Source of the DNA: Octopus vulgaris
Lineage: Eukaryota
Direction of reading: 5' to 3'
NCBI GenBank assembly: GCA_951406725.2
Contig: OX597834.1
Span: forward strand, 3,534,001 to 3,598,000
Length of the DNA: 64,000 bases
Shown: in pieces, positions 1,176-63,824 of the stretch
Layout: each line of letters starts with the position of its first letter
Numbering within the stretch: the stretch's first letter is position 1
Position numbers and translations under genes: made by a program
The notes under the pieces: model-generated
What the model was told of the DNA's origin: nothing
The model's database searches: none
What the model saw: the letters and a program-made list of their open reading frames with translations, nothing else

Positions 1176-1191
1176 TTTTAACCTTTTTCAG
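1176..1191 (+). other. Putative splice acceptor 5 nt upstream of the DUF229 ATG, implying an upstream non-coding exon
   Basis: ttttaacctttttcAG|gtttcATG, a pyrimidine tract plus AG, is conserved before all three copies. Confidence 0.55.
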
Positions 1192-1196
1192 GTTTC

Positions 1197-3161
1197 ATGA
1201 GGAAAAAAGTGAAAGAAATGAATAAAAAAGCAATAATTCCTATTCTGTGTTTGGGTACCACAATTTCCATATTTATTATACGGAGTTTCAACCTGAATAA
1301 GGAAAACATGCAATTGATAGAAATGGAAATTAACAAAGGATTCTTGGTTGATTCGAAAATGTGCAGGATACCAAATATTGATCCATTCGACATTTCCGTG
1401 CGTAAATATTTCTCGATAAGTAAATGGCGACCCTGTCCAGGTAAAGCTTCTTTGACGTACCAAGAGGATAATGTTTTGAGAATTAATAAAGCTGTTATCA
1501 TACAAAAGTATAAAAACAATTTCCATTCATGCAAAATATATCCAATAGTAAGGAATGATACTGACGATGATCATGTCGACTACATGAAGGAATCTTTACT
1601 GTTTAAATCAGATGTGAATATAACTGATGAATTTATTAGAGTTCAATGTTTTAATAGAAACAATAAAACAATTTCCACAAATTTCCACGCCTTTGTCCAG
1701 ATGAAAGAATTACGGCCTAAGGATACGAACCCATATAATACTGGTTACGATGGCATATACTCTTCAAAAGATTCTATGAAAAACATTGATTTTTCAAACT
1801 TTGCAGAAAACAAGCTTTCACTGAATGTTCTTTTAATTGGAATTGATTCAGTTTCGCGATTGAATTTCATACGACAGATGCCGTTAACTCGTCAGTTTCT
1901 ATTAAGTCATGGCGCTATTGAAATGTTAGGTTACAACAAAGTGGGTGATAATACATTTCCCAATATCATACCATTTCTTACTGGGAAATACCTAGAAGAA
2001 CTACCTGAATCAAAGAAACTGGAAAGGGAGCCATTTGATAAATACGATATAATTTGGAAACATTATAATAAATCCGGGTACGTTACTATGTTTGCAGAAG
2101 ATTCAACATCTGGAGCAATATTTAACCACTTGAGGTACGGTTTTAAGAAACAACCGACTGACCATTATTTGAGACCATTTGCACTAGCAAGAGAGAAAGC
2201 AAAGTCTCTTTGGTCAAATAATAATTTTTGCTTTGGTAATCGAATGGAACCAGCTATAGTTCTACAATACACACATGATTTTCTCAGAGTCTACAAGGAT
2301 AAGCCATATTTCACTTTTACATTTATCACACGTATTTCACATGATGACATGAATATGGCTGGTCGTGGAGATTTTGAATATCTGAGGTTCCTTAAGAAAT
2401 CCTTTAATCAAAACCTTCTAAACAATACTATTTTGTTTTTCTTTTCTGATCATGGAATTAGATTTGGCTTATTTCGTAAGACTTATGTTGGTCGACTAGA
2501 AGAACGACTGCCTGCTATGTACATCCTTCCACCTGACTGGTTCAGAGACAAATTTCCGACATTATGGAATAATCTCAAAGTAAACACTCACCGATTGACA
2601 ACACCATTCGATATCTATGAAACCCTTCAAGATATTTTGGATATCGAAAAAACAGCAGAACGTTCTAAATCTAATGAAATTGACTACAACAATCTCAAAC
2701 GAATCAGCCTGTTCAGAGAGATACCTTTAAATCGTTCTTGTGAGGCAGCACATATTAAACCACACTGGTGTACATGTCACCTCTTTAATCCACTTGCTCT
2801 TAATGATAGCATTGTAATTAACGTAACTAATTACCTCGTGAATTATATAAACAACATGACATCAAATTCTAGTAAAGTGTGTGCCAGGTTAAAATTACAG
2901 GAAATCAAAAATGCTGAAATTTCAGTGATGAATGACCAGGTACTTTCCTATTTAGGCAAAGGAGTTCAGACTTATACGGATTACCGAATTATTATGCAAA
3001 CACTTCCCGGTGAAGGTTTATTTGAAGGAACAGTAAGATATTACAGTGACAATGAGCAGTTTTCATTGTTGGGGGAAATTAGTCGAATAAATCGCTATGG
3101 ACATCAATCTGAGTGTGTTCATGACTTTATCCTCAGGAAATATTGCTACTGTAACAAATAG
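1197..3161 (+). CDS. DUF229-family protein (alkaline phosphatase/sulfatase superfamily), type II membrane-anchored, 654 aa, copy 1
   Basis: Uninterrupted ORF. Basic N-terminus followed by a hydrophobic anchor (AIIPILCLGTTISIFII). Motifs LIGIDSVSRLNF, GYNKVGDNTFPN, GFKKQPTDHY, SHDD, FSDHG, EERLP, LTTPFDIYETL, RSCEAAHIKPHWCTC and C-terminal SRINRYG..C..KYCYC are typical of DUF229. Confidence 0.9.
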   Translation: MRKKVKEMNKKAIIPILCLGTTISIFIIRSFNLNKENMQLIEMEINKGFLVDSKMCRIPNIDPFDISVRKYFSISKWRPCPGKASLTYQEDNVLRINKAVIIQKYKNNFHSCKIYPIVRNDTDDDHVDYMKESLLFKSDVNITDEFIRVQCFNRNNKTISTNFHAFVQMKELRPKDTNPYNTGYDGIYSSKDSMKNIDFSNFAENKLSLNVLLIGIDSVSRLNFIRQMPLTRQFLLSHGAIEMLGYNKVGDNTFPNIIPFLTGKYLEELPESKKLEREPFDKYDIIWKHYNKSGYVTMFAEDSTSGAIFNHLRYGFKKQPTDHYLRPFALAREKAKSLWSNNNFCFGNRMEPAIVLQYTHDFLRVYKDKPYFTFTFITRISHDDMNMAGRGDFEYLRFLKKSFNQNLLNNTILFFFSDHGIRFGLFRKTYVGRLEERLPAMYILPPDWFRDKFPTLWNNLKVNTHRLTTPFDIYETLQDILDIEKTAERSKSNEIDYNNLKRISLFREIPLNRSCEAAHIKPHWCTCHLFNPLALNDSIVINVTNYLVNYINNMTSNSSKVCARLKLQEIKNAEISVMNDQVLSYLGKGVQTYTDYRIIMQTLPGEGLFEGTVRYYSDNEQFSLLGEISRINRYGHQSECVHDFILRKYCYCNK

Positions 3162-13881: not shown

Positions 13882-13891
13882 GTTGTTGTTG

Positions 13892-14574
13892 TTGTTCAAA
13901 GAAGCGCTGGCGTTTCTCGTACCGGCGGATCCTTTGTGCTTTGGCAAGCATATCTTGCTCCGCTTTTCTTTTATCTCAGGTAAATAGTTGAACTTTTTGT
14001 TTTGTTCAAAGAAGCGCTGGCGTTTCTCGTACCGGCGGATCCTTTGTGCTTTGGCAAGGATATCTTGCTTCCGCTTTTCTTTTATCTCAGGTAAATAGTT
14101 GAACTTTTTGTTGTTGTTCAAAGAAGCGCTGGCGTTTCTCGTACCGGCGGATCCTTTGTGCTTTGGCAAGGATATCTTGCTTCAGCTTTTCTTTTATCTC
14201 AGGTAAATAGTTGAACTTTTTGTTTTGTTCAAAGAAGCGCTGGCGTTTCTCGTACCGGCGGATCCTTTGTGCTTTGGCAAGGATATCTTGCTTCCGCTTT
14301 TCTTTTATCTCAGGTAAATAGTTGAACTTTTTGTTTTGTTCAAAGCAGCGCTGGCGTTTCTCGTACCGGCGGATCCTTTGTGCTTTGGCAAGGATATCTT
14401 GCTTCCGCTTTTCTTTTATCTCAGGTAAATAGTTGAACTTTTTGTTTTGTTCAAAGAAGCGCTGGCGTTTCTCGTACCGGCGGATCCTTTGTGCTTTGGC
14501 ATGGATATCTTGCTTCAGCTTTTCTTTTATCTCAGGTAAATAGTTGAACTTTTTGTTTTGTTCAAAGAAGCGCT
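13892..14574 (-). repeat. 111-bp LINE-derived minisatellite, ~6 copies
   Basis: Period 110-112 bp. The minus strand encodes a 37-aa unit KFNYLPEIKEKRKQDILAKAQRIRRYEKRQRFFEQNK. Confidence 0.88.
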
Positions 14575-14577
14575 ACG

Positions 14578-14664
14578 TTTCTTCTTCTTCTTCTTCTTCT
14601 TCTTCTTCTTCTTCTTCTTCTTCTTCTTCTTCTTCTTCTTCTTCTTCTTCTTCTTCTTCTTCTT

Positions 14665-18181: not shown

Positions 18182-18444
18182 ATCTTTCACTCTCATTCTC
18201 TCTTTCTTTCTCACTCTCTCTTTCTCTCTTACTTCCTCTCTGTCCTCTCCCTCGCTTTGCCACTGACTTCTTCCTTTGAAGTAAGTGTGACACACACCAC
18301 AGATGCGTACAAAAAGAACAAGTTGGCGTATTAATATTATTAATAAATGTAACTATGTCTAATATAAATGTGTAAGCGTTTGTAAAGTATTTCATTGTTT
18401 TAGGTAAATTTTAAAATAAAATATTTTAACCTTTTTCAGGTTTC

Positions 18445-20409
18445 ATGAGGAAAAAAGTGAAAGAAATGAATAAAAAAGCAATAATTCCTATTCTGTGTTT
18501 GGGTACCACAATTTCCATATTTATTATACGGAGTTTCATTCTGAATAAGGAAAACATGCAATTGATAGAAATAGAAATTAACAAAGGATTCTTGGTTGAT
18601 TCGAAAATGTGCAGGATACCAAATATTGATCCATTCGACATTTCCGTGCGTAAATATTTCTCGATAAGTAAATGGCGACCCTGTCCAGGTAATGCTTCTT
18701 TGACGTACCAAGAGGATAATGTTTTGAGAATTAATAAAGCTGTTATCATACAAAAGTATAAAAACAATTTCCATTCATGCAAAGTATATCCAATAGTAAG
18801 GAATGATACTGACGATGATCATGTCGACTACATGAAGGAATCTTTACTGTTTAAATCAGATGTGAATATAACTGATGAATTTATTAGAGTTCAATGTTTT
18901 AATAGAAACAATAAAACAATTTACACAAATTTCCACGCCTTTGTCCAGATGAAAGAATTACGGCCTAAGGATACGAACCCATATAATACTGGTTACGATG
19001 GCATATACTCTTCAAAAGATTCTATGAAAAACATTGATTTTTCAAACTTTGCAGAAAACAAGCTTTCACTGAATGTTCTTTTAATTGGAATTGATTCAGT
19101 TTCGCGATTGAATTTCATACGACAGATGCCGTTAACTCGTCAGTTTCTATTAAGTCATGGCGCTATTGAAATGTTAGGTTACAACAAAGTGGGTGATAAT
19201 ACATTTCCCAATATGATACCATTTCTTACTGGGAAATACCTAGAAGAACTACCTGAATCAAAGAAACTGGAACGGGAGCCATTTGATAAATACGATATAA
19301 TTTGGAAACATTATAATAAATCCGGGTACGTTACTATGTTTGCAGAAGATTCAACATCTGGAGCAATGTTTAACTACTTCAAGTACGGTTTTAAGAAACA
19401 ACCGACTGACCATTATTTGAGACCATTTGCACTAGCAAGAGAGAAAGCAAAGTCTCTTTGGTCAAATAATAATTTTTGCTTTGGTAATCGAATGGAACCA
19501 GCTATAGTTCTACAATACACACATGATTTTCTCAGAGTCTACAAGGATAAGCGATATTTCACTTTAACATTTATCACACGTATTTCACATGATGACATGA
19601 ATATGGCTGGTCGTGGAGATTTTGAATATCTGAGGTTCCTTAAGAAATCCTTTAATCAAAACCTTCTAAACAATACTATTTTGTTTTTCTTTTCTGATCA
19701 TGGAATTAGATTTGGCTTATTTCGTAAGACTTATGTTGGTCGACTAGAAGAACGACTGCCTACTATGTATATCCTTCCACCTGACTGGTTCAGAGACAAA
19801 TTTCCGACATTATGGAATAATCTCAAAGTAAACACTCACCGATTGACAACACCATTCGATATCTATGAAACCCTACAAGATATTTTGGATATCGAAAAAA
19901 CAGCAGAACGTTCTAAATCTAATGAAATTGACTACAACAATCTCAAACGAATCAGCCTGTTCAGAGAGATACCTTTAAATCGTTCTTGTGAAGCAGCACA
20001 TATTAAACCACACTGGTGTACATGTCACCTCTTTAATCCAGTTGCTCTTAATGATAGCATTGTAATTAACGTAACTAATTACCTCGTGAATTATATAAAC
20101 AACATGACATCAACTTCTAGTAAAGTGTGTGCCAGGTTAAAATTACAGGAAATCAAAAATGCTGAAATTTCAGTGATGAATGACCAGGTACTTTCCTATT
20201 TAGGCAAAGGAGTTCAGACTTATAAGGATTACCGAATTATTATGCAAACACTTCCCGATGAAGGTTTATTTGAAGGAACAGTAAGATATTACAGTGACAA
20301 TGAGCAGTTTTCATTGTTGGGGGAAATTAGTCGAATAAATCGCTATGGACATCAATCTGAGTGTGTTCATGACTTTATCCTCAGGAAATATTGCTACTGT
20401 AACAAATAG
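18445..20409 (+). CDS. DUF229-family protein, 654 aa, copy 2
   Basis: Intact ORF with about 17 aa differences from copy 1 and all motifs retained. Confidence 0.9.
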   Translation: MRKKVKEMNKKAIIPILCLGTTISIFIIRSFILNKENMQLIEIEINKGFLVDSKMCRIPNIDPFDISVRKYFSISKWRPCPGNASLTYQEDNVLRINKAVIIQKYKNNFHSCKVYPIVRNDTDDDHVDYMKESLLFKSDVNITDEFIRVQCFNRNNKTIYTNFHAFVQMKELRPKDTNPYNTGYDGIYSSKDSMKNIDFSNFAENKLSLNVLLIGIDSVSRLNFIRQMPLTRQFLLSHGAIEMLGYNKVGDNTFPNMIPFLTGKYLEELPESKKLEREPFDKYDIIWKHYNKSGYVTMFAEDSTSGAMFNYFKYGFKKQPTDHYLRPFALAREKAKSLWSNNNFCFGNRMEPAIVLQYTHDFLRVYKDKRYFTLTFITRISHDDMNMAGRGDFEYLRFLKKSFNQNLLNNTILFFFSDHGIRFGLFRKTYVGRLEERLPTMYILPPDWFRDKFPTLWNNLKVNTHRLTTPFDIYETLQDILDIEKTAERSKSNEIDYNNLKRISLFREIPLNRSCEAAHIKPHWCTCHLFNPVALNDSIVINVTNYLVNYINNMTSTSSKVCARLKLQEIKNAEISVMNDQVLSYLGKGVQTYKDYRIIMQTLPDEGLFEGTVRYYSDNEQFSLLGEISRINRYGHQSECVHDFILRKYCYCNK

Positions 20410-26948: not shown

Positions 26949-29060
26949 AATGAAACAGAAGTTGAAATTTTTAATAATTTTTTCACCCGAATCGCAACGT
27001 CTAGAAAACACATAACCAGACACATACAATATTCCACACTGCGCCGATCTTAGGACACTTGAAGTCAGACAGTTGGTGGGAATCTTCTCAAATTTATGGC
27101 AATTATCTCTGATAAAACTCTGTCAGCTGGCCCCCGCTAAAATAGTTATGTCCCTCCATGTCCATCACAAGAAAAACGCAATGTACATTTTGGAATCCTG
27201 AAGTATTCCATTGTTGCTACAGATCCATAAACCTTTGCTAAATCTAACTACAAAACATTCAGCATATCCTTCTTTTCACATTCAATGGTTTTCCCACCAG
27301 CCAGATATTTTTGCATTACATAATTTCTGGACTGGGCTGTCAATATAGTCTTTGTTTTTCTCTCTTTCTCTCTCTCATAAATTTATTTGTGAAAGTGTGT
27401 TGTTCATAGGCTCTCTTCTCTTTTATACATTCATTTTTATTTTTGCAATTAAGGTGTGTGTCCTATGAATCTTTTTATCTTAATTTTAGTTATAGCAAGG
27501 TATAGCAACTGACATACTTGCTGTGTGATTGGCCCTGGGCCAATTCTTCAACGCTAAACACGAAGTTTGCATTGTCAGAGTTAAGGTGCTTGCTGTAAGG
27601 CAAGGAGGAACAAAAGCGGCTCGTGGGCCCGTGTGGCAGAAGTGCAACGTTGCATCGAAGCCATGATTCGGTCTTTAGTGGACAAAATGGGCGCATGGTA
27701 CTTGAGGTCAAGCAGATGTTTGAGGAACGAGATTTTTTATGTATGTTCGTATTTCAATAAATACCTCCTGTCAGAATTTAAAAGTCGACCAATGGACACT
27801 CAGTAAACGATTAACATCTGGTTTACGTTTGCTTGACATCGAATTATCGTAACGTTGGTTATCTCCGCTGTGAGAGTGTCTTTAATCTTTTCGTCCATCC
27901 AAGACACCGTTCTTTCATTTTTATTGTCATCACCTTGTTTCTGACATTGTCTGGACTGTCCTGATAGTACTTTTGTTTAGAAACATCCCCCGTTTTGCAG
28001 AGAGTGCATATCAATATTTTTTTTTATATATTCGCCAACTATCGGAGAAAGCAAATATTTTGCTATTTTCCAAATAATTTGAAGCATGGCTGAGAAAGAG
28101 GTAATCATAATGTTCGACGACGCGTTCCTCGTCGGAGAAAAAGAATACTGGCGTAGCTTTGACAACAGTAAAGGACATCGCCGCCTCACCAGCGAAAGTA
28201 AAATCCGAGCCTAATACACTTTCGTCTCTAAGCTTATTAGTCTGCTTCAGCTGGTGCTGTTCAGGGATAGAAGTAAGATGAACTACACGAGCTGAAGCAG
28301 ACTACTATGGTCCCTTAAAGATTGAAACCAGAGCTTTACCACAGAGTAGGGGATAATTAGTATGGCTAAGCTGTATGGAAGAGGGGTAAATAAATGTTAT
28401 GTATGGAAGAACTGTATCAAATCTTTACATCGAGACACAAATTACTTAATAGCAAGCTGGAACCGATCCTAAGATTCTTGCATAAACATAGCAAGACTTT
28501 TAAGAAATTTAACACACGTTCTAGATAACTGAGTAGTAAAGATAAAAGCACAACTCCCCAAATACATAGTCTCTTTTTCAGTCAATCAAGTATATATTCC
28601 TTTACCTTTCAACGACTCAGCATAGTTAACACCACAGCTACGAAAATATCTGAATAACTTAGAAGATAACACGGAACTGAACCACCCGACAATAATATAC
28701 AAGAACTATACTTAAAAGCAAGCTTATTAAGTACAAAGTACCCAACTACTACAATATACCAAGAAACCCGCGAAAATAGTAACATAAACTTTGGTCCAAT
28801 TAAATAGAACCTTGACTTCGGCCAGCAACAGGTGTGAAACCGAGGTCAACCACACAAGTTTACAAACAGATCAGATTTTAGATTCAAACCAATCTCACCC
28901 CACTTCTTGAACCAGTAAACAACTAATTGAATTCAGGTGGCTTAGAGCCAAGCTGGTTCAAAGACCCTGGACAGAAAACTATGCCCGGTTGTATATGCAA
29001 CTGCATGTACTCTCTGCCGTGAAGGTCGTCGTAACCATAAAAAGGACATTCCGTATGACA

Positions 29061-29456
29061 TCTTTATATATAAAAGAGAGGTTGTGTGTCTGTCTGCTAC
29101 GATTTAGATTCCTAACTACTCCCACATTTTGCGGTGCAGTTTAACCAAAACCGGGTATCTTATAGTCGTGATACATATCGAGCCCTTCTGGGTATTAGCG
29201 CGCGTCTACGATGAGTCTACGATTTAAAAAAAAAATTACCATCATTTTTTTCCATTTTAATGCATTTTTTCGCTATTATATAAGGGAAGTAACTCTCTAA
29301 AAATGTCTACGATGAGTCAACGATTTAAAAAAAATTTACCATCATTTTTTTCCATTTTTAATGCATTTTTTTGCTATGTTTTGGCTACAACTCTCTAAAA
29401 ATGCTTATATAGTTATTTCCCTTACAAACCCGAGCAACGCCGGGCGATACTGCTAG
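29061..29456 (+). mobile_element. Non-autonomous Helitron, shorter variant at an independent site
   Basis: A|TC...hairpin...CTAG|T. Shares the 5' and 3' portions with 4547-5076 but has a different middle. Confidence 0.75.
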
Positions 29457-29459
29457 TTG

Positions 29460-30830
29460 TAAAATAAAATGCTTCAGAATTGCCAAGTTAACAGTTTGAC
29501 CAGGAGGAACTAATTCTGTGTGGACAACTCCTTTCGCATTAATGAAACAAATTAGCATCGTCTTAACATTGGACTTTACTTGACACGTTTTTTGTGGTGT
29601 GGTGACATCGAATGCTTCCATTGACTTAATTGCTGCTTCGTTTCCAAATCGTAGCCGTAGCACCATCTTTCGTCAGGAGTGATGACCTTCGAAAAAAAGG
29701 TCCGGATCAATTTCTAACTATTCTTTCAGTTCATGACACACATTCAGTCGTGACCGTTTTTGATCTTCCGTGAGCAAATGAAGAACAAATTTTGTTGCAA
29801 CTCTTTTCGTTCGCAATTCCTCGTTCAGAATTCGTAAGCAGGATCTCCAGGACACAGCAGTCATATCAACACGTTCGTCAATTGTTCAGTGACGGTCCTC
29901 CAAGATCAGTTCATGAGTTTTCATGATTTTTCATTCGTTCTGGAGGTCAATGGTCGTCCTGAACGAGGTTGGTCTTCAAGCGACAAGTGACCATTCCTAA
30001 AGCATGTGTAGGCATCTAGCTTGACCCTGCCTGAGATTTGAAACCAAATCCACCTGTTTGTTGCTTGTCAAAACTAGCGGGAAATCTTCTGCACACCAGT
30101 TGATTGATGAGAAAACACTCGACCCCCTACGACCTGTGCTGGTCAAGGAAAGGTCAGTCTTTTGTTTAAGGTTTGACCTATATTACTAACCATAGTTTAT
30201 ATAACAGAAAGAATTTCCTATCTCTTCCTCTGATGTGTCAGCTATGACCAACGAGCAACACGCTCTTTTGCGTTAGTCATGACCAAGAACAGCAGTTTCT
30301 TCGGCCGCAAGAAAGACGATGCCACCTTTATTCTTTCTTCCTTTCTAGTCAGCATCGTGCATGCCTTACTCTTTCACTCTCTGCTGACCGACAACCTTCT
30401 TCTACACTATCAACTACTAACTAGTGAGCCAACCTTGAAGAATTGCTATTGTCTCTTCAACTAACTGTCGGGTAAACGAATAAACATATGCAAATAATAT
30501 TTCTTCCTTCTTGGTGTTGATTCTTCGATCTTCATTGGCTACTCCGACGGGAGCACCCTGAAGCGTTACATCTACACCCTACATTCTGTAGTGGGCTACA
30601 TCATATCCACATGATATAGCACATCACATCTAGCCCGCTATACGTGGAAACCACTCGTAAACTTGTGTTTTGCTCAAAAGCGGCTTCCTTGAAGCGTGAC
30701 AGCTGTTTCGGTTGTCGTTTCTCCCGGTAGAAAACGGAATTTCACGGAAGCACGCTGTTCCTTTGTTTTCATCCACCGCAAAAATCGACGAACAGAGGAG
30801 AAGCACTGCAAAACAAAGAAGGCACCCACA
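29460..30830 (-). mobile_element. Decayed mariner (Tc1/mariner) transposase relic, interrupted by an insertion at 30007-30642
   Basis: TPQKTCQVKSNVKTMLICFINAKGVVHTELVPPGQTVN (catalytic-domain segment) and N-terminal LSKTQVYEWF helix-turn-helix segment. Confidence 0.75.
30007..30642 (+). mobile_element. Solo-LTR-like insertion inside the mariner (copy at 56530-57165)
   Basis: Starts TGTAG, ends CTATA (CTACA-like), internal AATAAA, flanked by CATG/CGTG (a 4-bp TSD with CpG decay). Mariner coding sequence resumes on both sides. Confidence 0.55.
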
Positions 30831-31792
30831 GTATGGCCTCAATAGAAAACGCCGGTCGGAAGCCTGACCTACCACGGGCTTATCACACAGAGAACGTTTC
30901 TGTTTTCTTTTGGGTACCCCATCGTATACTAAACCTGCAAAGTAACTTATTCCTTAAATGCGGGTACATATGTGCACGCACCATTGTTCATTTACCGAAT
31001 AGTCAGCCTTCACTATATTTTTTTGAATGCCCTGATATGAAAAGGTGAACAAATTTGATATCAGGTATCTCAAATAATTAATCACGAAATTCATTAATAC
31101 ATATAACAACAGACACACACACACACACACACTCACACACACACAAACACAGACACACACACACACACACACTCTCTTACACACACACACACACACACAC
31201 ATACGCGCGCGCGCATTCTCGGTTTTCGTTTGATCCAAATTGACACTCGTGTGTACACAAGCACACACACAGACACTTAGAAATGCAGACACGTACACAC
31301 GCACACACAAATACTCACTCATTCTTCTACCCCCCCCCACATGTGTATTTAAAAAAAAAAATTATCCAAACTGTTTTAATTGTAATTAACGTGGATGTTG
31401 CAACGAATATCAAAGTCCAAGACACTGTTGTTGTATTTTGTATTATTCAGACATCGTTTTCTCCTGGTAACAAAGGATTGTGCTTAGATAACAAACACAG
31501 TGATGTTTCGGTCGATGACGCATGGGAAATACATAACAAAAAAACATATATGTATATATATGTATGTATATATAATCAACCATAGAGTTAAACCAGTGCA
31601 TCGGTTAATATTGGCATAATGACTCTCTACAGACACAACAAAATGATAAACTTACGAAGGTGAGTCTCCCTTTTATTTTACCTGTCGTCTACTATTTCGC
31701 TTCCTATTTCCTTAGTCTAATGAATGGATTGGCTCTTGGAGGTCCATGTGAGACTTTGCTGTTAAAATTCTTGTGCAATAAATTGGTTATAT

Positions 31793-31955
31793 AGGCGTAG
31801 GCGAGGCTGTGAGGTAAGACGCTTGCTTCCCAACCACATGGTTCCGAGTTCAGTCTCACTGCGTGGCACCTTCGGCAAATGTTTAATATAGCCTCGGGCC
31901 GACCAGAGCCTGGTGAGTAGATTTGGTACAAGGAAACTGAAATAAGTCCGTAGTA
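31793..31955 (+). mobile_element. Second tRNA-derived SINE family, diverged (copy at ~58365-58527)
   Basis: ggctgtgaggtaag...ggttccgagttcagtc A/B-box-like head, a gcaccttcggcaa core-like segment, ending in a simple repeat. Confidence 0.55.
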
Positions 31956-32239
31956 TCTATCTATCTGTGATACACGATCCCTATTGATCGTTTTTTTTTC
32001 CTCGTCCCCTTTTTTTCCTTTTTTTCTTCTTTTTTCATTTTTCTTTTCTTTTGTTCCTTTTCCTTTTTTTCATTTCCTTTTTTTTGTTCTTTTTTTCCTT
32101 TTACGATCCCTTTTGATCGAAAACCTACGCCACCTTTTTTTTCTTTTGTTTTTTGTTATTTTTCATCCCCCAAAAGAAAAGCTCTACCTTGTAACTTGTC
32201 CCATCTGTGTGCAGCCCTGTGTGGCCAATAAAGAAACTT

Positions 32240-32244
32240 ATCTG

Positions 32245-32313
<69 letters not shown>

Positions 32314-32378
32314 GTGTGTGTGCATTTATGTATGTGTGTATGTGTGTGTATATATATATATGTATATATATATATGTG

Positions 32379-32414
<36 letters not shown>

Positions 32415-32436
32415 TGTATGTATGTATGTATGTATG

Positions 32437-32477
<41 letters not shown>
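32240..32477. repeat. Compound (TATC)n/(TG)n/(TATG)n/(TA)n microsatellite (copy 58810-59071)
   Basis: Directly visible. Confidence 0.95.
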
Positions 32478-32480
<3 letters not shown>

Positions 32481-32576
32481 TTATATAAATAAGGATAAGA
32501 TCGTTATTTTAATTATCGATCTTATCAGGTGGCCAGTATGGGAATAAAAACCTTCAAAGGTAATAATTATTATTAA

Positions 32577-32679
32577 AATTATAATTTAGGGTATCTAAGA
32601 GATACCGCCACGCTGGAAATAGAGTCAAGTTTTGGCTGCTATTTCCAGCGTGAATGTATCTCTTAGATACCCTAAATTA

Positions 32680-32684
<5 letters not shown>
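32577..32684. repeat. ~108-bp fold-back (long inverted repeat)
   Basis: Perfect 29-bp outer arms (aattataatttagggtatctaagagatac / gtatctcttagataccctaaattataatt) and 14-bp inner arms (cacgctggaaatag / ctatttccagcgtg). Confidence 0.9.
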
Positions 32685-32744
<60 letters not shown>

Positions 32745-32862
32745 CAATTAAGGAACGGCCATAATAGGCCATTCACCCACTAGAAATAACAGCCAAAGCT
32801 TCTACCGCAAATAAAGATCAATTCCGTAAACAGGAGAAAATTAAAAAAACATTTACCCTGTA

Positions 32863-32969
32863 ATTTCTTGTACGGTATACCGTTTCATCTGCTGTTTAAT
32901 GGTAAACTAACCTGATTAAATTAAATCAAGCCAATCTTCCATAAGCCCTCAGATTCTTCAGCAAGAAAT
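32863..32969 (-). ncRNA. Type I hammerhead ribozyme (inverted monomer)
   Basis: Exact reverse complement of the hammerhead at 33641-33747. Confidence 0.85.
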
Positions 32970-33640
32970 AGCTCAAGTCGGAACAGATATTTACACGAGG
33001 CATACCCAATCCTGCCAAGGCAATATCTGACCTAAAATTTTCAAATCGTCGCACTCGCGCCAAATTTATCGGCAGCAAATAAATCGTCGATTCCATTACG
33101 GAATTAACCAAAAAATTCATAATTAATCAATATAGGGTGGCAAGGAAAATTTTGTAGAATTTTTTGCCACCAGCGGCCCAGTGGGAAAAAATTAAATAGT
33201 CATAGACCATTTTTAAGTTCAACATTAACAATTAAGGAACGGCCATAATAGGCATAATAATTTACAGGGTAAATGTTTTTTTAATTTTCTCCTGTTTACG
33301 GAATTGATCTTTATTTGCGGTAGAAGCTTTGGCTGTTATTTCTAGTGGGTGAATGGCCTATTATGGCCGTTCCTTAATTGTTAATGTTGAACTTAAAAAT
33401 GGTCTATGACTATTTAATTTTTTCCCACTGGGCCGCTGGTGGCAAAAAAATTCTACAAAATTTTCCTTGCCACCCTATATTGATTAATTATGAATTTTTT
33501 GGTTAATTCCGTAATGGAATCGACGATTTATTTGCTGCCGATAAATTTGGCGCGAGTGCGACGATTTGAAAATTTTAGGTCAGATATTGCCTTGGCAGGA
33601 TTGGGTATGCCTCGTGTAAATATCTGTTCCGACTTGAGCT

Positions 33641-33747
33641 ATTTCTTGCTGAAGAATCTGAGGGCTTATGGAAGATTGGCTTGATTTAATTTAATCAGGT
33701 TAGTTTACCATTAAACAGCAGATGAAACGGTATACCGTACAAGAAAT
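33641..33747 (+). ncRNA. Type I hammerhead ribozyme, monomer 1
   Basis: Stem I ATTTCTTG/CAAGAAAT; core CTGAAGA; stem II ATCTG...CAGAT with internal hairpin; GAAA; stem III ACGG-TATA-CCGT; cleavage triplet GTA, with the predicted cut after 33739. Confidence 0.9.
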
Positions 33748-34125
33748 TACAGGGTAAATGTTTTTTTAATTTTCTCCTGTTTACGGAATTGATCTTTATT
33801 TGCGGTAGAAGCTTTGGCTGTTATTTCTAGTGGGTGAATGGCCTATTATGGCCGTTCCTTAATTGTTAATGTTGAACTTAAAAATGGTCTATGACTATTT
33901 AATTTTTTCCCACTGGGCCGCTGGTGGCAAAAAAATTCTACAAAATTTTCCTTGCCACCCTATATTGATTAATTATGAATTTTTTGGTTAATTCCGTAAT
34001 GGAATCGACGATTTATTTGCTGCCGATAAATTTGGCGCGAGTGCGACGATTTGAAAATTTTAGGTCAGATATTGCCTTGGCAGGATTGGGTATGCCTCGT
34101 GTAAATATCTGTTCCGACTTGAGCT

Positions 34126-34232
34126 ATTTCTTGCTGAAGAATCTGAGGGCTTATGGAAGATTGGCTTGATTTAATTTAATCAGGTTAGTTTACCATTAAA
34201 CAGCAGATGAAACGGTATACCGTACAAGAAAT
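34126..34232 (+). ncRNA. Type I hammerhead ribozyme, monomer 2
   Basis: Same sequence as 33641-33747. Confidence 0.88.
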
Positions 34233-34610
34233 TACAGGGTAAATGTTTTTTTAATTTTCTCCTGTTTACGGAATTGATCTTTATTTGCGGTAGAAGCTTT
34301 GGCTGTTATTTCTAGTGGGTGAATGGCCTATTATGGCCGTTCCTTAATTGTTAATGTTGAACTTAAAAATGGTCTATGACTATTTAATTTTTTCCCACTG
34401 GGCCGCTGGTGGCAAAAAAATTCTACAAAATTTTCCTTGCCACCCTATATTGATTAATTATGAATTTTTTGGTTAATTCCGTAATGGAATCGACGATTTA
34501 TTTGCTGCCGATAAATTTGGCGCGAGTGCGACGATTTGAAAATTTTAGGTCAGATATTGCCTTGGCAGGATTGGGTATGCCTCGTGTAAATATCTGTTCC
34601 GACTTGAGCT

Positions 34611-34717
34611 ATTTCTTGCTGAAGAATCTGAGGGCTTATGGAAGATTGGCTTGATTTAATTTAATCAGGTTAGTTTACCATTAAACAGCAGATGAAACGG
34701 TATACCGTACAAGAAAT
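34611..34717 (+). ncRNA. Type I hammerhead ribozyme, monomer 3
   Basis: Same sequence as 33641-33747. Confidence 0.88.
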
Positions 34718-35095
34718 TACAGGGTAAATGTTTTTTTAATTTTCTCCTGTTTACGGAATTGATCTTTATTTGCGGTAGAAGCTTTGGCTGTTATTTCTAG
34801 TGGGTGAATGGCCTATTATGGCCGTTCCTTAATTGTTAATGTTGAACTTAAAAATGGTCTATGACTATTTAATTTTTTCCCACTGGGCCGCTGGTGGCAA
34901 AAAAATTCTACAAAATTTTCCTTGCCACCCTATATTGATTAATTATGAATTTTTTGGTTAATTCCGTAATGGAATCGACGATTTATTTGCTGCCGATAAA
35001 TTTGGCGCGAGTGCGACGATTTGAAAATTTTAGGTCAGATATTGCCTTGGCAGGATTGGGTATGCCTCGTGTAAATATCTGTTCCGACTTGAGCT

Positions 35096-35202
35096 ATTTC
35101 TTGCTGAAGAATCTGAGGGCTTATGGAAGATTGGCTTGATTTAATTTAATCAGGTTAGTTTACCATTAAACAGCAGATGAAACGGTATACCGTACAAGAA
35201 AT
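35096..35202 (+). ncRNA. Type I hammerhead ribozyme, monomer 4
   Basis: Same sequence as 33641-33747. Confidence 0.88.
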
Positions 35203-35580
35203 TACAGGGTAAATGTTTTTTTAATTTTCTCCTGTTTACGGAATTGATCTTTATTTGCGGTAGAAGCTTTGGCTGTTATTTCTAGTGGGTGAATGGCCTA
35301 TTATGGCCGTTCCTTAATTGTTAATGTTGAACTTAAAAATGGTCTATGACTATTTAATTTTTTCCCACTGGGCCGCTGGTGGCAAAAAAATTCTACAAAA
35401 TTTTCCTTGCCACCCTATATTGATTAATTATGAATTTTTTGGTTAATTCCGTAATGGAATCGACGATTTATTTGCTGCCGATAAATTTGGCGCGAGTGCG
35501 ACGATTTGAAAATTTTAGGTCAGATATTGCCTTGGCAGGATTGGGTATGCCTCGTGTAAATATCTGTTCCGACTTGAGCT

Positions 35581-35687
35581 ATTTCTTGCTGAAGAATCTG
35601 AGGGCTTATGGAAGATTGGCTTGATTTAATTTAATCAGGTTAGTTTACCATTAAACAGCAGATGAAACGGTATACCGTACAAGAAAT
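35581..35687 (+). ncRNA. Type I hammerhead ribozyme, monomer 5
   Basis: Same sequence as 33641-33747. Confidence 0.88.
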
Positions 35688-36064
35688 TACAGGGTAAATG
35701 TTTTTTTAATTTTCTCCTGTTTACGGAATTGATCTTTATTTGCGGTAGAAGCTTTGGCTGTTATTTCTAGTGGGTGAATGGCCTATTATGGCCGTTCCTT
35801 AATTGTTAATGTTGAACTTAAAAATGGTCTATGACTATTTAATTTTTTCCCACTGGGCCGCTGGTGGCAAAAAATTCTACAAAATTTTCCTTGCCACCCT
35901 ATATTGATTAATTATGAATTTTTTGGTTAATTCCGTAATGGAATCGACGATTTATTTGCTGCCGATAAATTTGGCGCGAGTGCGACGATTTGAAAATTTT
36001 AGGTCAGATATTGCCTTGGCAGGATTGGGTATGCCTCGTGTAAATATCTGTTCCGACTTGAGCT

Positions 36065-36171
36065 ATTTCTTGCTGAAGAATCTGAGGGCTTATGGAAGAT
36101 TGGCTTGATTTAATTTAATCAGGTTAGTTTACCATTAAACAGCAGATGAAACGGTATACCGTACAAGAAAT
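36065..36171 (+). ncRNA. Type I hammerhead ribozyme, monomer 6
   Basis: Same sequence as 33641-33747. Confidence 0.88.
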
Positions 36172-36549
36172 TACAGGGTAAATGTTTTTTTAATTTTCTC
36201 CTGTTTACGGAATTGATCTTTATTTGCGGTAGAAGCTTTGGCTGTTATTTCTAGTGGGTGAATGGCCTATTATGGCCGTTCCTTAATTGTTAATGTTGAA
36301 CTTAAAAATGGTCTATGACTATTTAATTTTTTCCCACTGGGCCGCTGGTGGCAAAAAAATTCTACAAAATTTTCCTTGCCACCCTATATTGATTAATTAT
36401 GAATTTTTTGGTTAATTCCGTAATGGAATCGACGATTTATTTGCTGCCGATAAATTTGGCGCGAGTGCGACGATTTGAAAATTTTAGGTCAGATATTGCC
36501 TTGGCAGGATTGGGTATGCCTCGTGTAAATATCTGTTCCGACTTGAGCT

Positions 36550-36656
36550 ATTTCTTGCTGAAGAATCTGAGGGCTTATGGAAGATTGGCTTGATTTAATT
36601 TAATCAGGTTAGTTTACCATTAAACAGCAGATGAAACGGTATACCGTACAAGAAAT
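36550..36656 (+). ncRNA. Type I hammerhead ribozyme, monomer 7
   Basis: Same sequence as 33641-33747. Confidence 0.88.
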
Positions 36657-37034
36657 TACAGGGTAAATGTTTTTTTAATTTTCTCCTGTTTACGGAATTG
36701 ATCTTTATTTGCGGTAGAAGCTTTGGCTGTTATTTCTAGTGGGTGAATGGCCTATTATGGCCGTTCCTTAATTGTTAATGTTGAACTTAAAAATGGTCTA
36801 TGACTATTTAATTTTTTCCCACTGGGCCGCTGGTGGCAAAAAAATTCTACAAAATTTTCCTTGCCACCCTATATTGATTAATTATGAATTTTTTGGTTAA
36901 TTCCGTAATGGAATCGACGATTTATTTGCTGCCGATAAATTTGGCGCGAGTGCGACGATTTGAAAATTTTAGGTCAGATATTGCCTTGGCAGGATTGGGT
37001 ATGCCTCGTGTAAATATCTGTTCCGACTTGAGCT

Positions 37035-37141
37035 ATTTCTTGCTGAAGAATCTGAGGGCTTATGGAAGATTGGCTTGATTTAATTTAATCAGGTTAGTTT
37101 ACCATTAAACAGCAGATGAAACGGTATACCGTACAAGAAAT
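37035..37141 (+). ncRNA. Type I hammerhead ribozyme, monomer 8
   Basis: Same sequence as 33641-33747. Confidence 0.88.
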
Positions 37142-38525
37142 TACAGGGTAAATGTTTTTTTAATTTTCTCCTGTTTACGGAATTGATCTTTATTTGCGGT
37201 AGAAGCTTTGGCTGTTATTTCTAGTGGGTGAATGGCCTATTATGGCCGTTCCTTAATTGTTAATGTTGAACTTAAAAATGGTCTATGACTATTTAATTTT
37301 TTCCCACTGGGCCGCTGGTGGCAAAAAAATTCTACAAAATTTTCCTTGCCACCCTATATTGATTAATTATGAATATATATATATATATATATAAATATAT
37401 GCATACATACATATATGCACATACCTACATCTATATGTATATATACATGCATATATGGGTACAGGACATTAAAAAACGTTGAACACAATGAGAAACGAAA
37501 ACATAAAATCAAAAAGATAGAAAACTTTTTTGGGGCTTCATGCAGGCCTAGAGTAGATTAGAGTAGATTCGTAAGCCAAAGTCTACCCACGGGTCCGAGG
37601 TGCGGGCGTGTCAGTGAAACTGTCGTACACGCCTTCGTACATGGTGAAGAACTGAGGGGATTGATAACCCATGCGGAACAACTGGTGTCAGATACGGAAA
37701 GAGTACGGTTATCGACTGAGTCTTCATCAAGATTGTACCGCCTCCCTCTTGGAACAAGGATAAGAAGGCGTAGAAGAGGAATCGAGACAGGCAACTTTAT
37801 CTCCGGACACGGGTTGGTTAGTTTTTTTTAACTACCACCTGCCCAGGGAAGATGAGTCTGGAGAGGAGGTGCCTCTGCCTCAAAGAGCGTTGGAGAAAAG
37901 ATGGACAAATGTAAGGAAGTTGAGAGTGAATGGGGCTACGCCGGTGTAGCCGGTCTGAACGGAAAAGAAGGAAAAGAAAAACGGAAGAACAATGAAACGA
38001 AAAATTATTATAAAGAGTAAAAAAGAGAAAAAAAAAACCCCGGCGGGTCGAACAGAAATCCGGAAAAATATATTATTATTTAATTTTTAATTCATTTAAT
38101 TCGTTTCGATTTCATTGTATTTTTCAAATTCATTCGAATTCATTATATCGAACTAAATAATGTATAACCCCAGTCCCTAAATGTGTTTGTTTTGCCCTTG
38201 TTTTGTCCCCTCTATGTGAGCCATGTATTGGCAATAAAGAAATCAGTGTGAACCGAGTCTGGCTGACCGGCGGCTCAACGAAACGCAGTCTGTGAATGGA
38301 AAAGCAGAAAAAGGACAGCCATGGTAACTCACCAAGGGAAGCAGCGATTTTGTCCAACCACCCTCACTTTCCATTAACTCACTTTCTATTCCCTGTAACA
38401 TTACCATATCTCTCTCTTTATACTACCATGAGAGCGTGTACACACACATACACAGGCGGCCAAAATTAACTTTCATTACCTTGCATGCTTTACGAACTGT
38501 GTTATACTATTACACAAGCCGAGCC

Positions 38526-38599
<74 letters not shown>

Positions 38600-39330
38600 T
38601 CAAAATAAAAACATGATTTGGCATCATATTTTAATTTTGATTAATTTACTCCACCACCTACACCACCAAACGGTATATACAGGTGCTTACAATTATCAAG
38701 TACTCACCCTGAATTTCTCTCTCTCTCTATATATATATATAAATATATGCATACATACATATATGCACATACCTACATCTATATGTATATATACATGCAT
38801 ATATGAGTACAGGACATTAAAAAACGTTGAACACAATGAGAAACGAAAACATAAAAAGAAAAACATAGAAAACTTTATTAAAGTAACGGTAAATAAATAC
38901 TTCTTTACAACTTCGATCTCTGTTCTTCTTTCATCTTTCACATCTTACAATATGCCGTGGTAATAAATCTTTGCTGTTCACACACACACACGCTTTTTCT
39001 TTTCCAATTTTTATTATCTGCTTCAGCTCGTGAGCTGTGGCCGTGCTGAATACCACTATTGGTTTTGCTACGTTTTCCTTAATACTCTTTCTATGGTTGG
39101 CTTGGTGAATGAGGGAGTTCAACATTACCACTTTCGATTGCCTTTCCTGATGTGAAGTTGGCTCATCTGGGACTTTTGACTAGGAAATCCATTTCTGGTT
39201 TGAAGACGTCTGTATCCACTCCATGTAGGTCTCTCATGTCTTTTCAGGAGGATATTGAAAGACTGTGAGCACTTATATCATAAACTGTTGCAGTATCCGG
39301 TCCTGTATTTCGACGGTATGGGTGGGATCT

Positions 39331-40838: not shown

Positions 40839-40848
40839 GTTGTTGTTG

Positions 40849-41412
40849 TTGTTCAAAGAAGCGCTGGCGTTTCTCGTACCGGCGGATCCTTTGTGCTTTG
40901 GCAAGCATATCTTGCTCCGCTTTTCTTTTATCTCAGGTAAATAGTTGAACTTTTTGTTTTGTTCAAAGAAGCGCTGGCGTTTCTCGTACCGGCGGATCCT
41001 TTGTGCTTTGGCAAGGATATCTTGCTTCAGCTTTTCTTTTATCTCAGGTAAATAGTTGAACTTTTTGTTTTGTTCAAAGAAGCGCTGGCGTTTCTCGTAC
41101 CGGCGGATCCTTTGTGCTTTGGCAAGGATATCTTGCTTCCGCTTTTCTTTTATCTCAGGTAAATAGTTGAACTTTTTGTTTTGTTCAAAGAAGCGCTGGC
41201 GTTTCTCGTACCGGCGGATCCTTTGTGCTTTGGCAAGGATATCTTGCTTCCGCTTTTCTTTTATCTCAGGTAAATAGTTGAACTTTTTGTTTTGTTCAAA
41301 GAAGCGCTGGCGTTTCTCGTACCGGCGGATCCTTTGTGCTTTGTCAAGGATATCTTGCTTCCGCTTTTCTTTTATCTCAGTTAAATTCAGCTTTTCTTTT
41401 TTCTCAGGTAAA

Positions 41413-45224: not shown

Positions 45225-47174
45225 ATGAGGAAAAAAGTTAAAGAAATGAATAAAAAAGCAATAATTCCTATTCTGTGTTTGGGTACCACAATTTCCATAT
45301 TTATTATACAGAGTTTCAACCTGAATAAGGAAAACATGCAATTGATAGAAATGGAAATTAATTAATGGTTGATTCGAAAATGTGCAGGATATGATCCATT
45401 CGACATTTCCGTGCGTAAATATTTCTCGATAAGTAAATGGCGACCCTGTCCAGGTAATGCTTCTTTGACGTACCAAGAGGATAATGTTTTGAGAATTAAT
45501 AAAGCTGTTATCATACAAAGGTATAAAAACAATTTCCATTCATGCAAAGTATATCCAATAGTAAGGAATGATACTGACGATGATCATGTCGACTACATGA
45601 AGGAATCTTTACTGTTTAAATCAGATGTGAATATAACTGATGAATTTATTAGAGTTCAATGTTTTAATAGAAACAATAAAACAATTTACACAAATTTCCA
45701 CGCCTTTGTCCAGATGAAAGAATTACGGCCTAAGGATACGAACCCATATAATACTGGTTACGATGGCATATACTCTTCAAAAGATTCTATGAAAAACATT
45801 GATTTTTCAAACTTTGCAGAAAACAAGCTTTCACTGAATGTTCTTTTAATTGGAATTGATTCAGTTTCGCGATTGAATTTCATACGACAGATGCCGTTAA
45901 CTCGTCAGTTTCTATTAAGTCATGGCGCTATTGAAATGTTAGGTTACAACAAAGTGGGTGATAATACATTTCCCAATATCATACCATTTCTTACTGGGAA
46001 ATACCTAGAAGAACTACCTGAATCAAAGAAACTGGAACGGGAGCCATTTGATAAATACGATATAATTTGGAAACATTATAATAAATCCGGGTACGTTACT
46101 ATGTTTGCAGAAGATTCAACATCTGGAGCAATGTTTAACTACTTGAAGTACGGTTTTAAGAAACAGCCGACTGACCATTATTTGAGACCATTTGCACTAG
46201 CAAGAGAGAAAGCAAAGTCTCTTTGGTCAAATAATAATTTTTGCTTTGGTAATCGAATGGAACCAGCTATAGTTCTACAATACACACATGATTTTCTCAG
46301 AGTCTACAAGGATAAGCCATATTTCACTTTTACATTTATCACACGTATTTCACATGATGACATGAATATGGCTGGTCGTGGAGATTTTGAATATCTGAGG
46401 TTCCTTAAGAAATCCTTTAATCAAAACCTTCTAAACAATACTATTTTGTTTTTCTTTTCTGATCATGGAATTAGATTTGGCTTATTTCGTAAGACTTATG
46501 TTGGTCGACTAGAAGAACGACTGCCTGCTATGTACATCCTTCCACCTGACTGGTTCAGAGACAAATTTCCGACATTATGGAATAATCTCAAAGTAAACAC
46601 TCACCGATTGACAACACCATTCGATATCTATGAAACCCTACAAGATATTTTGGATATCGATAAAACAGCAGAACGTTCTAAATCTAATGAAATTGACTAC
46701 AAAAATCTCAAACGAATCAGCCTGTTCAGAGAGATACCTTTAAATCGTTCTTGTGAAGCAGCACATATTAAACCACACTGGTGTACATGTCACCTCTTTA
46801 ATCCAGTTGCTCTTAATGATAGCATTGTAATTAACGTAACTAATTACCTCGTGAATTATATAAACAACATGACATCAAATTCTAGTAAAGTGTGTGCCAG
46901 GTTAAAATTACAGGAAATCAAAAATGCTGAAATTTCAGTGATGAATGACCAGGTACTTTCCTATTTAGGCAAAGGAGTTCAGACTTATAAGGATTACCGA
47001 ATTATTATGCAAACACTTCCCGATGAAGGTTTATTTGAAGGAACAGTAAGATATTACAGTGACAATGAGCAGTTTTCATTGTTGGGGGAAATTAGTCGAA
47101 TAAATCGCTATGGACATCAATCTGAGTGTGTTCATGACTTTATCCTCAGGAAATATTGCTACTGTAACAAATAG
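45225..47174 (+). pseudogene. DUF229-family copy 3 with 5' indels and a premature stop
   Basis: ATG at 45225. A net -7 change near 45360 gives in-frame ATG GAA ATT AAT TAA (stop 45363-45365), and a further -8 deletion near 45391 restores the original frame. The remainder is intact; the 601-aa ORF in the track starts at a TTG. Confidence 0.75.

Positions 47175-59272: not shown

Positions 59273-59277
<5 letters not shown>
59170..59277. repeat. ~108-bp fold-back, unit 3 copy
   Basis: Same sequence as 32577-32684, followed by the empty (TA)n site. Confidence 0.9.
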
Positions 59278-59338
<61 letters not shown>

Positions 59339-62805: not shown

Positions 62806-62815
62806 GTTGTTGTTG

Positions 62816-63824
62816 TTGTTCAAAGAAGCGCTGGCGTTTCTCGTACCGGCGGATCCTTTGTGCTTTGGCAAGCATATCTTGCTCCGCTTTTCTTTTATCT
62901 CAGGTAAATAGTTGAACTTTTTGTTTTGTTCAAAGAAGCGCTGGCGTTTCTCGTACCGGCGGATCCTTTGTGCTTTGGCAAGGATATCTTGCTTCCGCTT
63001 TTCTTTTATCTCAGGTAAATAGTTGAACTTTTTGTTGTTGTTCAAAGAAGCGCTGGCGTTTCTCGTACCGGCGGATCCTTTGTGCTTTGGCAAGGATATC
63101 TTGCTTCCGCTTTTCTTTTATCTCAGGTAAATAGTTGAACTTTTTGTTTTGTTCAAAGAAGCGCTGGCGTTTCTCGTACCGGCGGATCCTTTGTGCTTTG
63201 GCAAGGATATCTTGCTTCCGCTTTTCTTTTATCTCAGGTAAATAGTTGAACTTTTTGTTTTGTTCAAAGAAGCGCTGGCGTTTCTCGTACCGGCGGATCC
63301 TTTGTGCTTTGTCAAGGATATCTTGCTTCAGCTTTTCTTTTATCTCAGGTAAATAGTTGAACTTTTTGTTTTGTTCAAAGAAGCGCTGACGTTTCTCGTA
63401 CCGGCGGATCCTTTGTGCTTTGGCAAGGATATCTTGCTTCAGCTTTTCTTTTATCTCAGGTAAATAGTTGAACTTTTTGTTTTGTTCAAAGAAGCGCTGG
63501 CGTTTCTCGTACCGGCGGATCCTTTGTGCTTTGGCAAGGATATCTTGCTTCCGCTTTTCTTTTATCTCAGGTAAATAGTTGAACTTTTTGTTTTGTTCAA
63601 AGAAGCGCTGGCGTTTCTCGTACCGGCGGATCCTTTGTGCTTTGGCAAGGATATCTTGCTTCCGCTTTTCTTTTATCTCAGGTAAATAGTTGAACTTTTT
63701 GTTTTGTTCAAAGAAGCGCTGGCGTTTCTCGTACCGGCGGATCCTTTGTGCTTTGTCAAGGATATCTTGCTTCCGCTTTTCTTTTATCTCAGTTAAATTC
63801 AGCTTTTCTTTTTTCTCAGGTAAA

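Follow-up and report, generated by a model that had tools for sequence, protein, structure and literature searches.

A young two-armed retrozyme insertion in Octopus vulgaris with two fixed outer ends and a likely Penelope-type mode of integration

The insertion at positions 32742 to 37374 of the window (the whole stretch of 64,000 nucleotides of Octopus vulgaris DNA analysed here) is a genuine structure comprising an inverted arm, a filler and a direct tandem array. It is likely to be a young, non-coding, RNA-derived non-LTR retrozyme with Penelope-type integration. We consider it probable that a Penelope-like enzyme, working in trans, placed the retrozyme in a (TA)n tract, with priming from both sides of the cut at RNA positions of about 131 and about 237. 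Positions within the 485-bp unit are numbered with the base after the predicted ribozyme cut as position 1 (33740 = 1). The parts of the locus, together with the corresponding empty site, are as follows.

32682 to 32741, unstranded: left (TA)n target tract, 60 bp
32742 to 33253, minus strand: inverted arm, 512 bp, reaching from unit position 129 on the outside (family site A, about 131) to 102 on the inside
33254 to 33261, unstranded: junction filler ATAATAAT, 8 nt, the first 6 nt repeating 33245 to 33250
33262 to 37374, plus strand: direct arm, 8.48 units of 485 bp, with its inner end at unit position 8 and its outer end at 241 (family site B, about 237)
37375 to 37400, unstranded: right (TA)n target tract, 26 bp
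59275 to 59335, unstranded: (TA)n tract of 61 bp without insertion (the empty paralogous site), located in the following copy of a segmental tandem duplication

An earlier, sequence-only reading of this DNA had described an inverted stretch of about 512 bp, slightly more than one monomer, and this agrees with the measured 512 bp, which cover 1.06 units (129 down to 102) at 99.8 to 100% identity to the direct array. The inner end of this arm at position 102 sits within the hairpin of site A. The direct array begins TTACAGGG at position 8, just past the predicted cut as had been stated, and stops at position 241; its units (485 bp, 36% GC) are identical save for one 1-base deletion in a homopolymer. 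The nucleotides between the two arms had been taken as untemplated. The 8-nt filler is present, but part of it probably had a template: the first 6 nt match the ATAATA of 33245 to 33250, and a local slip that copied this motif is the probable origin. No frame of at least 150 aa was found within the array, and the insertion is without an RT plus GIY-YIG frame of its own. An autonomous Penelope-like element was therefore rejected as an identity for the insertion.

The flanks of the empty site at 59275 to 59335 were 97.8% and 98.5% identical to those of the insertion, indicating that the insertion boundaries are exact and that the insertion is young. The filled tracts (60 + 26 bp) exceed the 61-bp empty site by about 25 bp, which lie inside the microsatellite, and no target-site duplication was definable inside (TA)n. 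A long palindrome at 32583 to 32687 abuts the target (TA)n tract on its left, and the empty site has the palindrome too. The window itself (12 to 64000) is a tandem segmental duplication with units of 17 to 27 kb that are 98 to 99% identical. A 111-bp tandem repeat, open on the minus strand and present in 4.9 to 8.9 copies at 13886 to 14582, 40843 to 41386 and 62810 to 63798, had no convincing Pfam match. Each duplication unit carries a single long frame matching DUF229 (1182 to 3161, 659 aa, E value of 5e-130), with similar frames at 18430 to 20409 and 45366 to 47174, and the first unit is without about 10 kb (28604 to 38725).

Every tandem unit of the insertion contains a full type I hammerhead core, as predicted at the following positions.

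33641 to 33747, plus strand: first of the 8 predicted type I hammerheads of the direct arm, a sub-gathering match to Rfam RF00163 with stem covariation; stem I pairs 33641 to 33648 with 33740 to 33747, CUGAAGA lies at 33649 to 33655 and GAAA at 33724 to 33727
32863 to 32969, minus strand: predicted type I hammerhead in the inverted arm, the reverse complement of the direct-arm motif

In the first of these motifs stem III is palindromic and the predicted cut falls after 33739. Rfam RF00163 aligned over the full model with 16.3 bits and an E value of 0.24, below the gathering score, at which Rfam gave no matches. The hammerhead core was intact in 276 of 283 copies, compensatory changes were seen in stems I and II across subfamilies, and the free core base varies. 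The predicted fold of the unit was also much more stable than that of shuffled sequences (z of -7.2). Contigs of four runs, whose status as RNA is a guess, cover the unit. A dip in depth across the cut in run X2 was absent in X1 and X14 and was set aside; since contigs cannot show ends, it was not taken as evidence. Runs X1 and X9 (presumed RNA) each exhibited 12 A>G differences in the interval 33500 to 33980, with 9 T>C in X9 as well, possibly due to editing of double-stranded RNA. Among 42 rare alleles fixed at genomic loci there was no excess suggestive of an editing imprint (A>G 8, T>C 10).

The family was found at 1334 candidate places in the genome, with 703 exact (TA)n-site B junctions. 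Three sets of loci were analysed, 118 in total: 38 from the 39 top-scoring loci plus the window, after one duplicate and one gap-ended locus were dropped (set 1); 20 of the 47 exact matches to the position-131 junction, 20 others being already in set 1 and 7 being left out (set 2); and 60 of the first 100 listed among the 703 exact matches to the position-237 junction (set 3). Clean head-to-head pairs of arms were observed at 24 of 38, 12 of 20 and 39 of 60 loci, respectively, so that the expectation of inverted segments elsewhere in the family was borne out at 75 of the 118. In all 75 pairs one outer end lay near 131 and the other near 237, with no case of two site A ends or two site B ends. 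The two sites within one unit are as follows.

33834 to 33870, plus strand: site A, a hairpin at about 95 to 118 and then an AT-rich loop ending at 131
33922 to 33976, plus strand: site B, a hairpin at about 183 to 220 and then an AT-rich loop ending at 237

Among 200 arm ends, 55 were exactly at 131 and 22 at 127 (site A), and 89 were exactly at 237 (site B). Both sites are in predicted AT-rich loops, 13 to 17 nt past a hairpin, and we infer that they are the start points of reverse transcription. TA-rich flanks were found on both sides of 57 pairs, on one side of 16 and on neither side of 2. At least one such flank was thus present in 73 of 75 pairs, one end having been pattern-selected in 51 of them. 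The one-of-each rule was also obeyed by 13 of 13 clean pairs in a diverged subfamily (about 69% identical), counted by eye among 29 distinct loci. This older subfamily (L202 to L231) has a variant CCGAUGA core and retains both end sites. The outer-end rule shows that the inverted stretch should not be treated, as had been done, as a leader of arbitrary register, since its outer end at 129 is family site A, fixed in 75/75 pairs. Likewise, the array does end mid-monomer in (TA)n as described, but its end at 241 is the fixed family site and not a truncation. The claim of Penelope-type, RNA-derived integration held up, given the head-to-head arms, the two fixed ends and the (TA)n targets. Counting against the best explanation, the remaining 43 of the 118 loci were single arms, short tails, or truncated or complex.

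The sequence-only reading had further proposed that a self-cleaved RNA end set the 5' boundary of the array and that array starts would cluster at the cut. The stop test allowed for how often arms pass each position and was repeated on pattern-selected loci because the top-score set could be biased; two arms clipped by the locus edge (L060 and L132) were kept, both being outside positions 1 to 30. In the pattern-selected loci, 28 of 137 inner ends were at positions 1 to 30 compared with 9.5 expected (ratio of 3.4, p = 2e-7). This was the best 30-nt window for stops, it was unmatched in 300 shuffles, and the excess was present in both arm types. Positions 1 to 10 held 15 ends (4.2 expected) in all sets and 8 (3.0 expected) in the pattern-only sets, and the start of the array at position 8 (33262) is thus probably ribozyme-related. 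Both arms ended together at positions 1 to 35 in 9 of 75 pairs, compared with 3.9 expected (p = 0.003), and in 7 of 51 at pattern-only loci, compared with 2.2 expected. Independent short-read contigs from four other DNA runs contained 14 inversion joints, of which 11 were at position 35 or below (p of about 0.009), 8 of these piling up at 33258 to 33262; the locus's own junction was absent among the joints in these contigs. The clustering near the cut was therefore confirmed. However, 109 of the 137 inner ends (about 80%) were outside positions 1 to 30, and only 16 to 29% of passes (8% in the top-score set) stopped there, suggesting that the ribozyme cut sets only a minority of inner ends. The fixed boundaries of the family are instead the outer ends.

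Where the two arms meet, the 75 pair junctions showed an overlap in 42, were blunt in 5 and contained filler in 28 (from approximate BLAST boundaries). At L079 (about 1090 to 1220) and L146 the junction fillers consisted of many A-rich 7- to 9-mer repeats, suggesting repeated slippage at the junction, and both arms ended at positions 2 to 23.

Two other accounts of the inner ends were considered. Were a self-cleaved RNA end generally to set the 5' boundary, with the inverted segment as a 5' leader on an ordinary array, the excess at positions 1 to 30 in both arm types, the joint ends of both arms and the short-read joints at 33258 to 33262 would all be accounted for. As a general rule it is nevertheless refuted by the 109 inner ends located elsewhere. 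The inverted segment, moreover, has a fixed outer end of its own and can be the longer arm, and ribozyme cleavage was unnecessary for insertion in vitro (PMC11167929). We regard this account as very improbable. There is a somewhat better, though still minor, chance that the stops after the cut arise because the enzyme stalls on the ribozyme in its folded, uncut state, or on the hairpin and U-tract of positions 8 to 40, rather than running off a cut end. Stem I spans positions 1 to 8 and the array at 33262 to 37374 starts at 8, and the B arms had a second, weaker stop hotspot at the base of the site A hairpin (9 compared with 4.1 expected, p = 0.02). Against this, other hairpins and U-tracts were without an excess in 30-nt bins, and the joint stops of both arms at pattern-only loci are as expected from a shared physical end.

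For the multimers, the earlier proposal had been rolling-circle copying or repeated template jumping, of which the former remains plausible and the latter is disfavoured. Across about 318 passes over the cut, the indel rate was 0.32% (12 in 3809 base-passes) compared with 0.30% elsewhere (426 in 142606), after removal of 13 positions at which subfamily or homopolymer indels are common. Such seamless unit junctions argue against jumping between linear cut monomers, and template jumps of R2 reportedly leave scars. We reject this explanation as highly improbable, even though stops cluster at the cut, so that linear ends probably exist, and extra template switches were seen at a few loci (L083, L096 and L131). 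At 19 of 75 loci the two arms shared rare alleles, and such alleles could be fixed in as many as 8 of the 8 copies of a locus. Overlap was sufficient for comparison at 43 loci; an arm's closest match was its own partner at 15 of these and another locus at 4, with a tie at 24. These data fit a single RNA haplotype per insertion, as expected of a circle, and are also compatible with a homogeneous source array. Copying of uncut multi-unit transcripts from such an array, which would predict the same seamless junctions and locus-fixed alleles, is rather unlikely. In its favour, multimeric RNAs have been reported in axolotl (PMC7229834), and the source could have been missed, since the sampling covered about 118 of the candidate places, which number more than 1300. 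It is countered by arms of up to 14.4 units, the longest observed, by alleles that were found at only 1 or 2 sampled loci and were fixed in all copies there, and by the intact core, which suggests that long transcripts would get cut.

The pairing of the arms could instead arise by self-priming, a proposal made for Penelope palindromic junctions (PMC3846280), in which the RNA-made arm folds back at its 3' end and is DNA-copied into the inverted arm. The locus at 32742 to 37374 is compatible with this, since its short arm nests in the long arm, and the sharing of rare alleles between arms also favours it. Symmetric inner ends were found in 8 of 75 pairs compared with 2.5 expected (p = 0.003), as fold-back priming would give, and these 8 junctions may have been made in that way. 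As a general explanation we find it quite unlikely: 23 of 75 pairs could not be nested, neither arm lying inside the other (21 expected for independent arms), and it offers no reason for the second arm to end invariably at the fixed site that the first arm does not use. Arm lengths correlated with a rho of 0.38, partly owing to the selection of the top-score set. Lastly, the chance that the junction is a fold-back read or assembly artefact is negligible. Its exact form was not among the joints in the four DNA runs, but it is asymmetric (102 compared with 8), both outer ends obey the family rule and join the unique flanking sequences expected from the empty paralog, and short-read contigs from runs X3, X4 and X18 contain joints of the same type.

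In the preferred reading, a Penelope-like enzyme would act in trans, inserting a copy of the retrozyme RNA at a (TA)n tract, and the two sides of the DNA cut would prime cDNA at RNA points of about 131 and about 237. Both cDNAs would derive from a single RNA haplotype, the simplest form being a circular monomer that is circled several times. Each would stop either randomly or at the ribozyme, cut or folded, where the risk would be approximately threefold higher. The cDNA 3' ends would then be joined via short overlaps or fillers. At 32742 to 37374, the long arm would have started from site B and made 8.5 turns before stopping at position 8, probably at the ribozyme, and the short arm would have started from site A, made 1.06 turns and stopped in the site A hairpin. 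In LINE-1 twin priming, both target strands prime cDNA, and a 5' inversion joined by microhomology results. Here, by contrast, the second priming site is fixed (it is variable in LINE-1), there is no poly(A) tail, and the arms overlap in sequence and span many units. We tentatively suggest, as a possibility that we would not yet favour, that a dimeric Penelope-like enzyme grips one small circular ribozyme RNA at the two fixed sites and copies it in rolling-circle fashion, starting on both broken DNA strands simultaneously. If this were true, the one-of-each rule would be a general explanation of the Penelope inverted-repeat-plus-tail structure, and the ribozyme cut would be a leaky brake that sets arm length.

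The element class and the qualitative architecture are already known. Metazoan non-LTR retrozymes, as described in PMC7229834 and the preprint bioRxiv 10.64898/2026.07.22.740005, are likewise dispersed, non-coding tandems of low GC with a type I hammerhead, although their unit is about 300 bp rather than the 485 bp of the Octopus family. Penelope-like elements have been proposed as helpers of such retrozymes (PMC7229834), and the preprint ties the two together by phylogeny. Inverted arms or fixed ends were not found in the texts of these two sources, in which the word "inverted" occurs 0 times (PMC7229834) and once, in a reference title (10.64898/2026.07.22.740005). Penelope-like insertions (PMC8557442, PMC3846280) share with the Octopus insertions the partial tandems, the inverted 5'-truncated copy, the (TA)n targets, the extension at one end and, in some copies, the palindromic junctions. 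They differ in that the retrozyme is without a coding frame and its extension is about 106 nt compared with 30 to 40, and one-of-each, counted in 75/75 pairs here, is described there as optional or frequent.

For PAc (Poseidon, Anolis), PMC11167929 reports that both strands were cut and extended in vitro at AT-rich targets, with two internal start sites that correspond to the tail seen in genomic copies and without a requirement for ribozyme cleavage; a dimer was predicted. The Octopus family similarly has an AT-rich target and two putative internal start sites that lie past the hammerhead cut, but these are AT-rich loops after hairpins rather than an AC-rich stem loop. In that study the start site of PAc did not differ between strands, whereas Octopus insertions always pair both sites, and stops in the Octopus family are enriched after the cut. 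No paper was found, in the literature outside supplements, on two-armed retrozyme insertions or on a strict one-of-each rule, and a search for cephalopod retrozymes gave only unrelated papers. The inverted structures of Penelope and the enzyme that moves animal retrozymes are described as open questions in PMC8557442, PMC11167929 and PMC7229834. The family offers hundreds of young insertions with two sharp ends and makes the effect of the ribozyme site measurable in a genome, the dispensability of cleavage having come from a single in vitro study (PMC11167929). Its 485-nt RNA is also small enough for in vitro tests alongside a seemingly intact enzyme of 899 aa that the same genome encodes.

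This enzyme is encoded by a young Penelope-like family (L182 to L193 and L201) with intact 899-aa frames and a 3624-bp tandem unit, which is inserted in (TA)n and whose terminal repeat contains a type I hammerhead. The frame received no label from sequence searches against Pfam and PDB; its assignment is based on atlas neighbours with RT, GIY-YIG and HTH_animal families and on motifs that we take to be RT- and GIY-YIG-like. Its ends were at about 62 to 67 and about 214 to 227, one of each, in all 8 pairs that the 13 loci yielded. The second Penelope-like family followed the same pattern, with ends at about 44 to 52 and about 197 to 203. At L035 (1 to 2300), a retrozyme array was observed in the (TA)n tail of this second family, which carries a hammerhead of its own and whose ends there are at about 52 and about 203. 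A very young RT family (L232 to L247), presumably Neptune-like, has frames of 776 to 876 aa that are 99 to 100% identical and inverted terminal repeats containing a 44-bp internal tandem, and a pattern search for a canonical hammerhead found none in it. The retrozyme unit had no significant similarity to the loci of the two Penelope-type families and this RT family (L150 to L201 and L232 to L247), separate retrozyme copies in the flanks of the Penelope-like loci excepted. In this the Octopus unit differs from vertebrate retrozymes, for which the abstract of 10.64898/2026.07.22.740005 reports relatedness to the terminal repeat of the helper. The spacing of ends in the coding families, about 150 to 155 nt compared with 106 in the retrozyme, also counts against the best explanation. 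Further type I hammerhead motifs, unrelated to that of the retrozyme, were seen in the flanking DNA of L187, L191 and L196, suggesting additional ribozyme repeat families.
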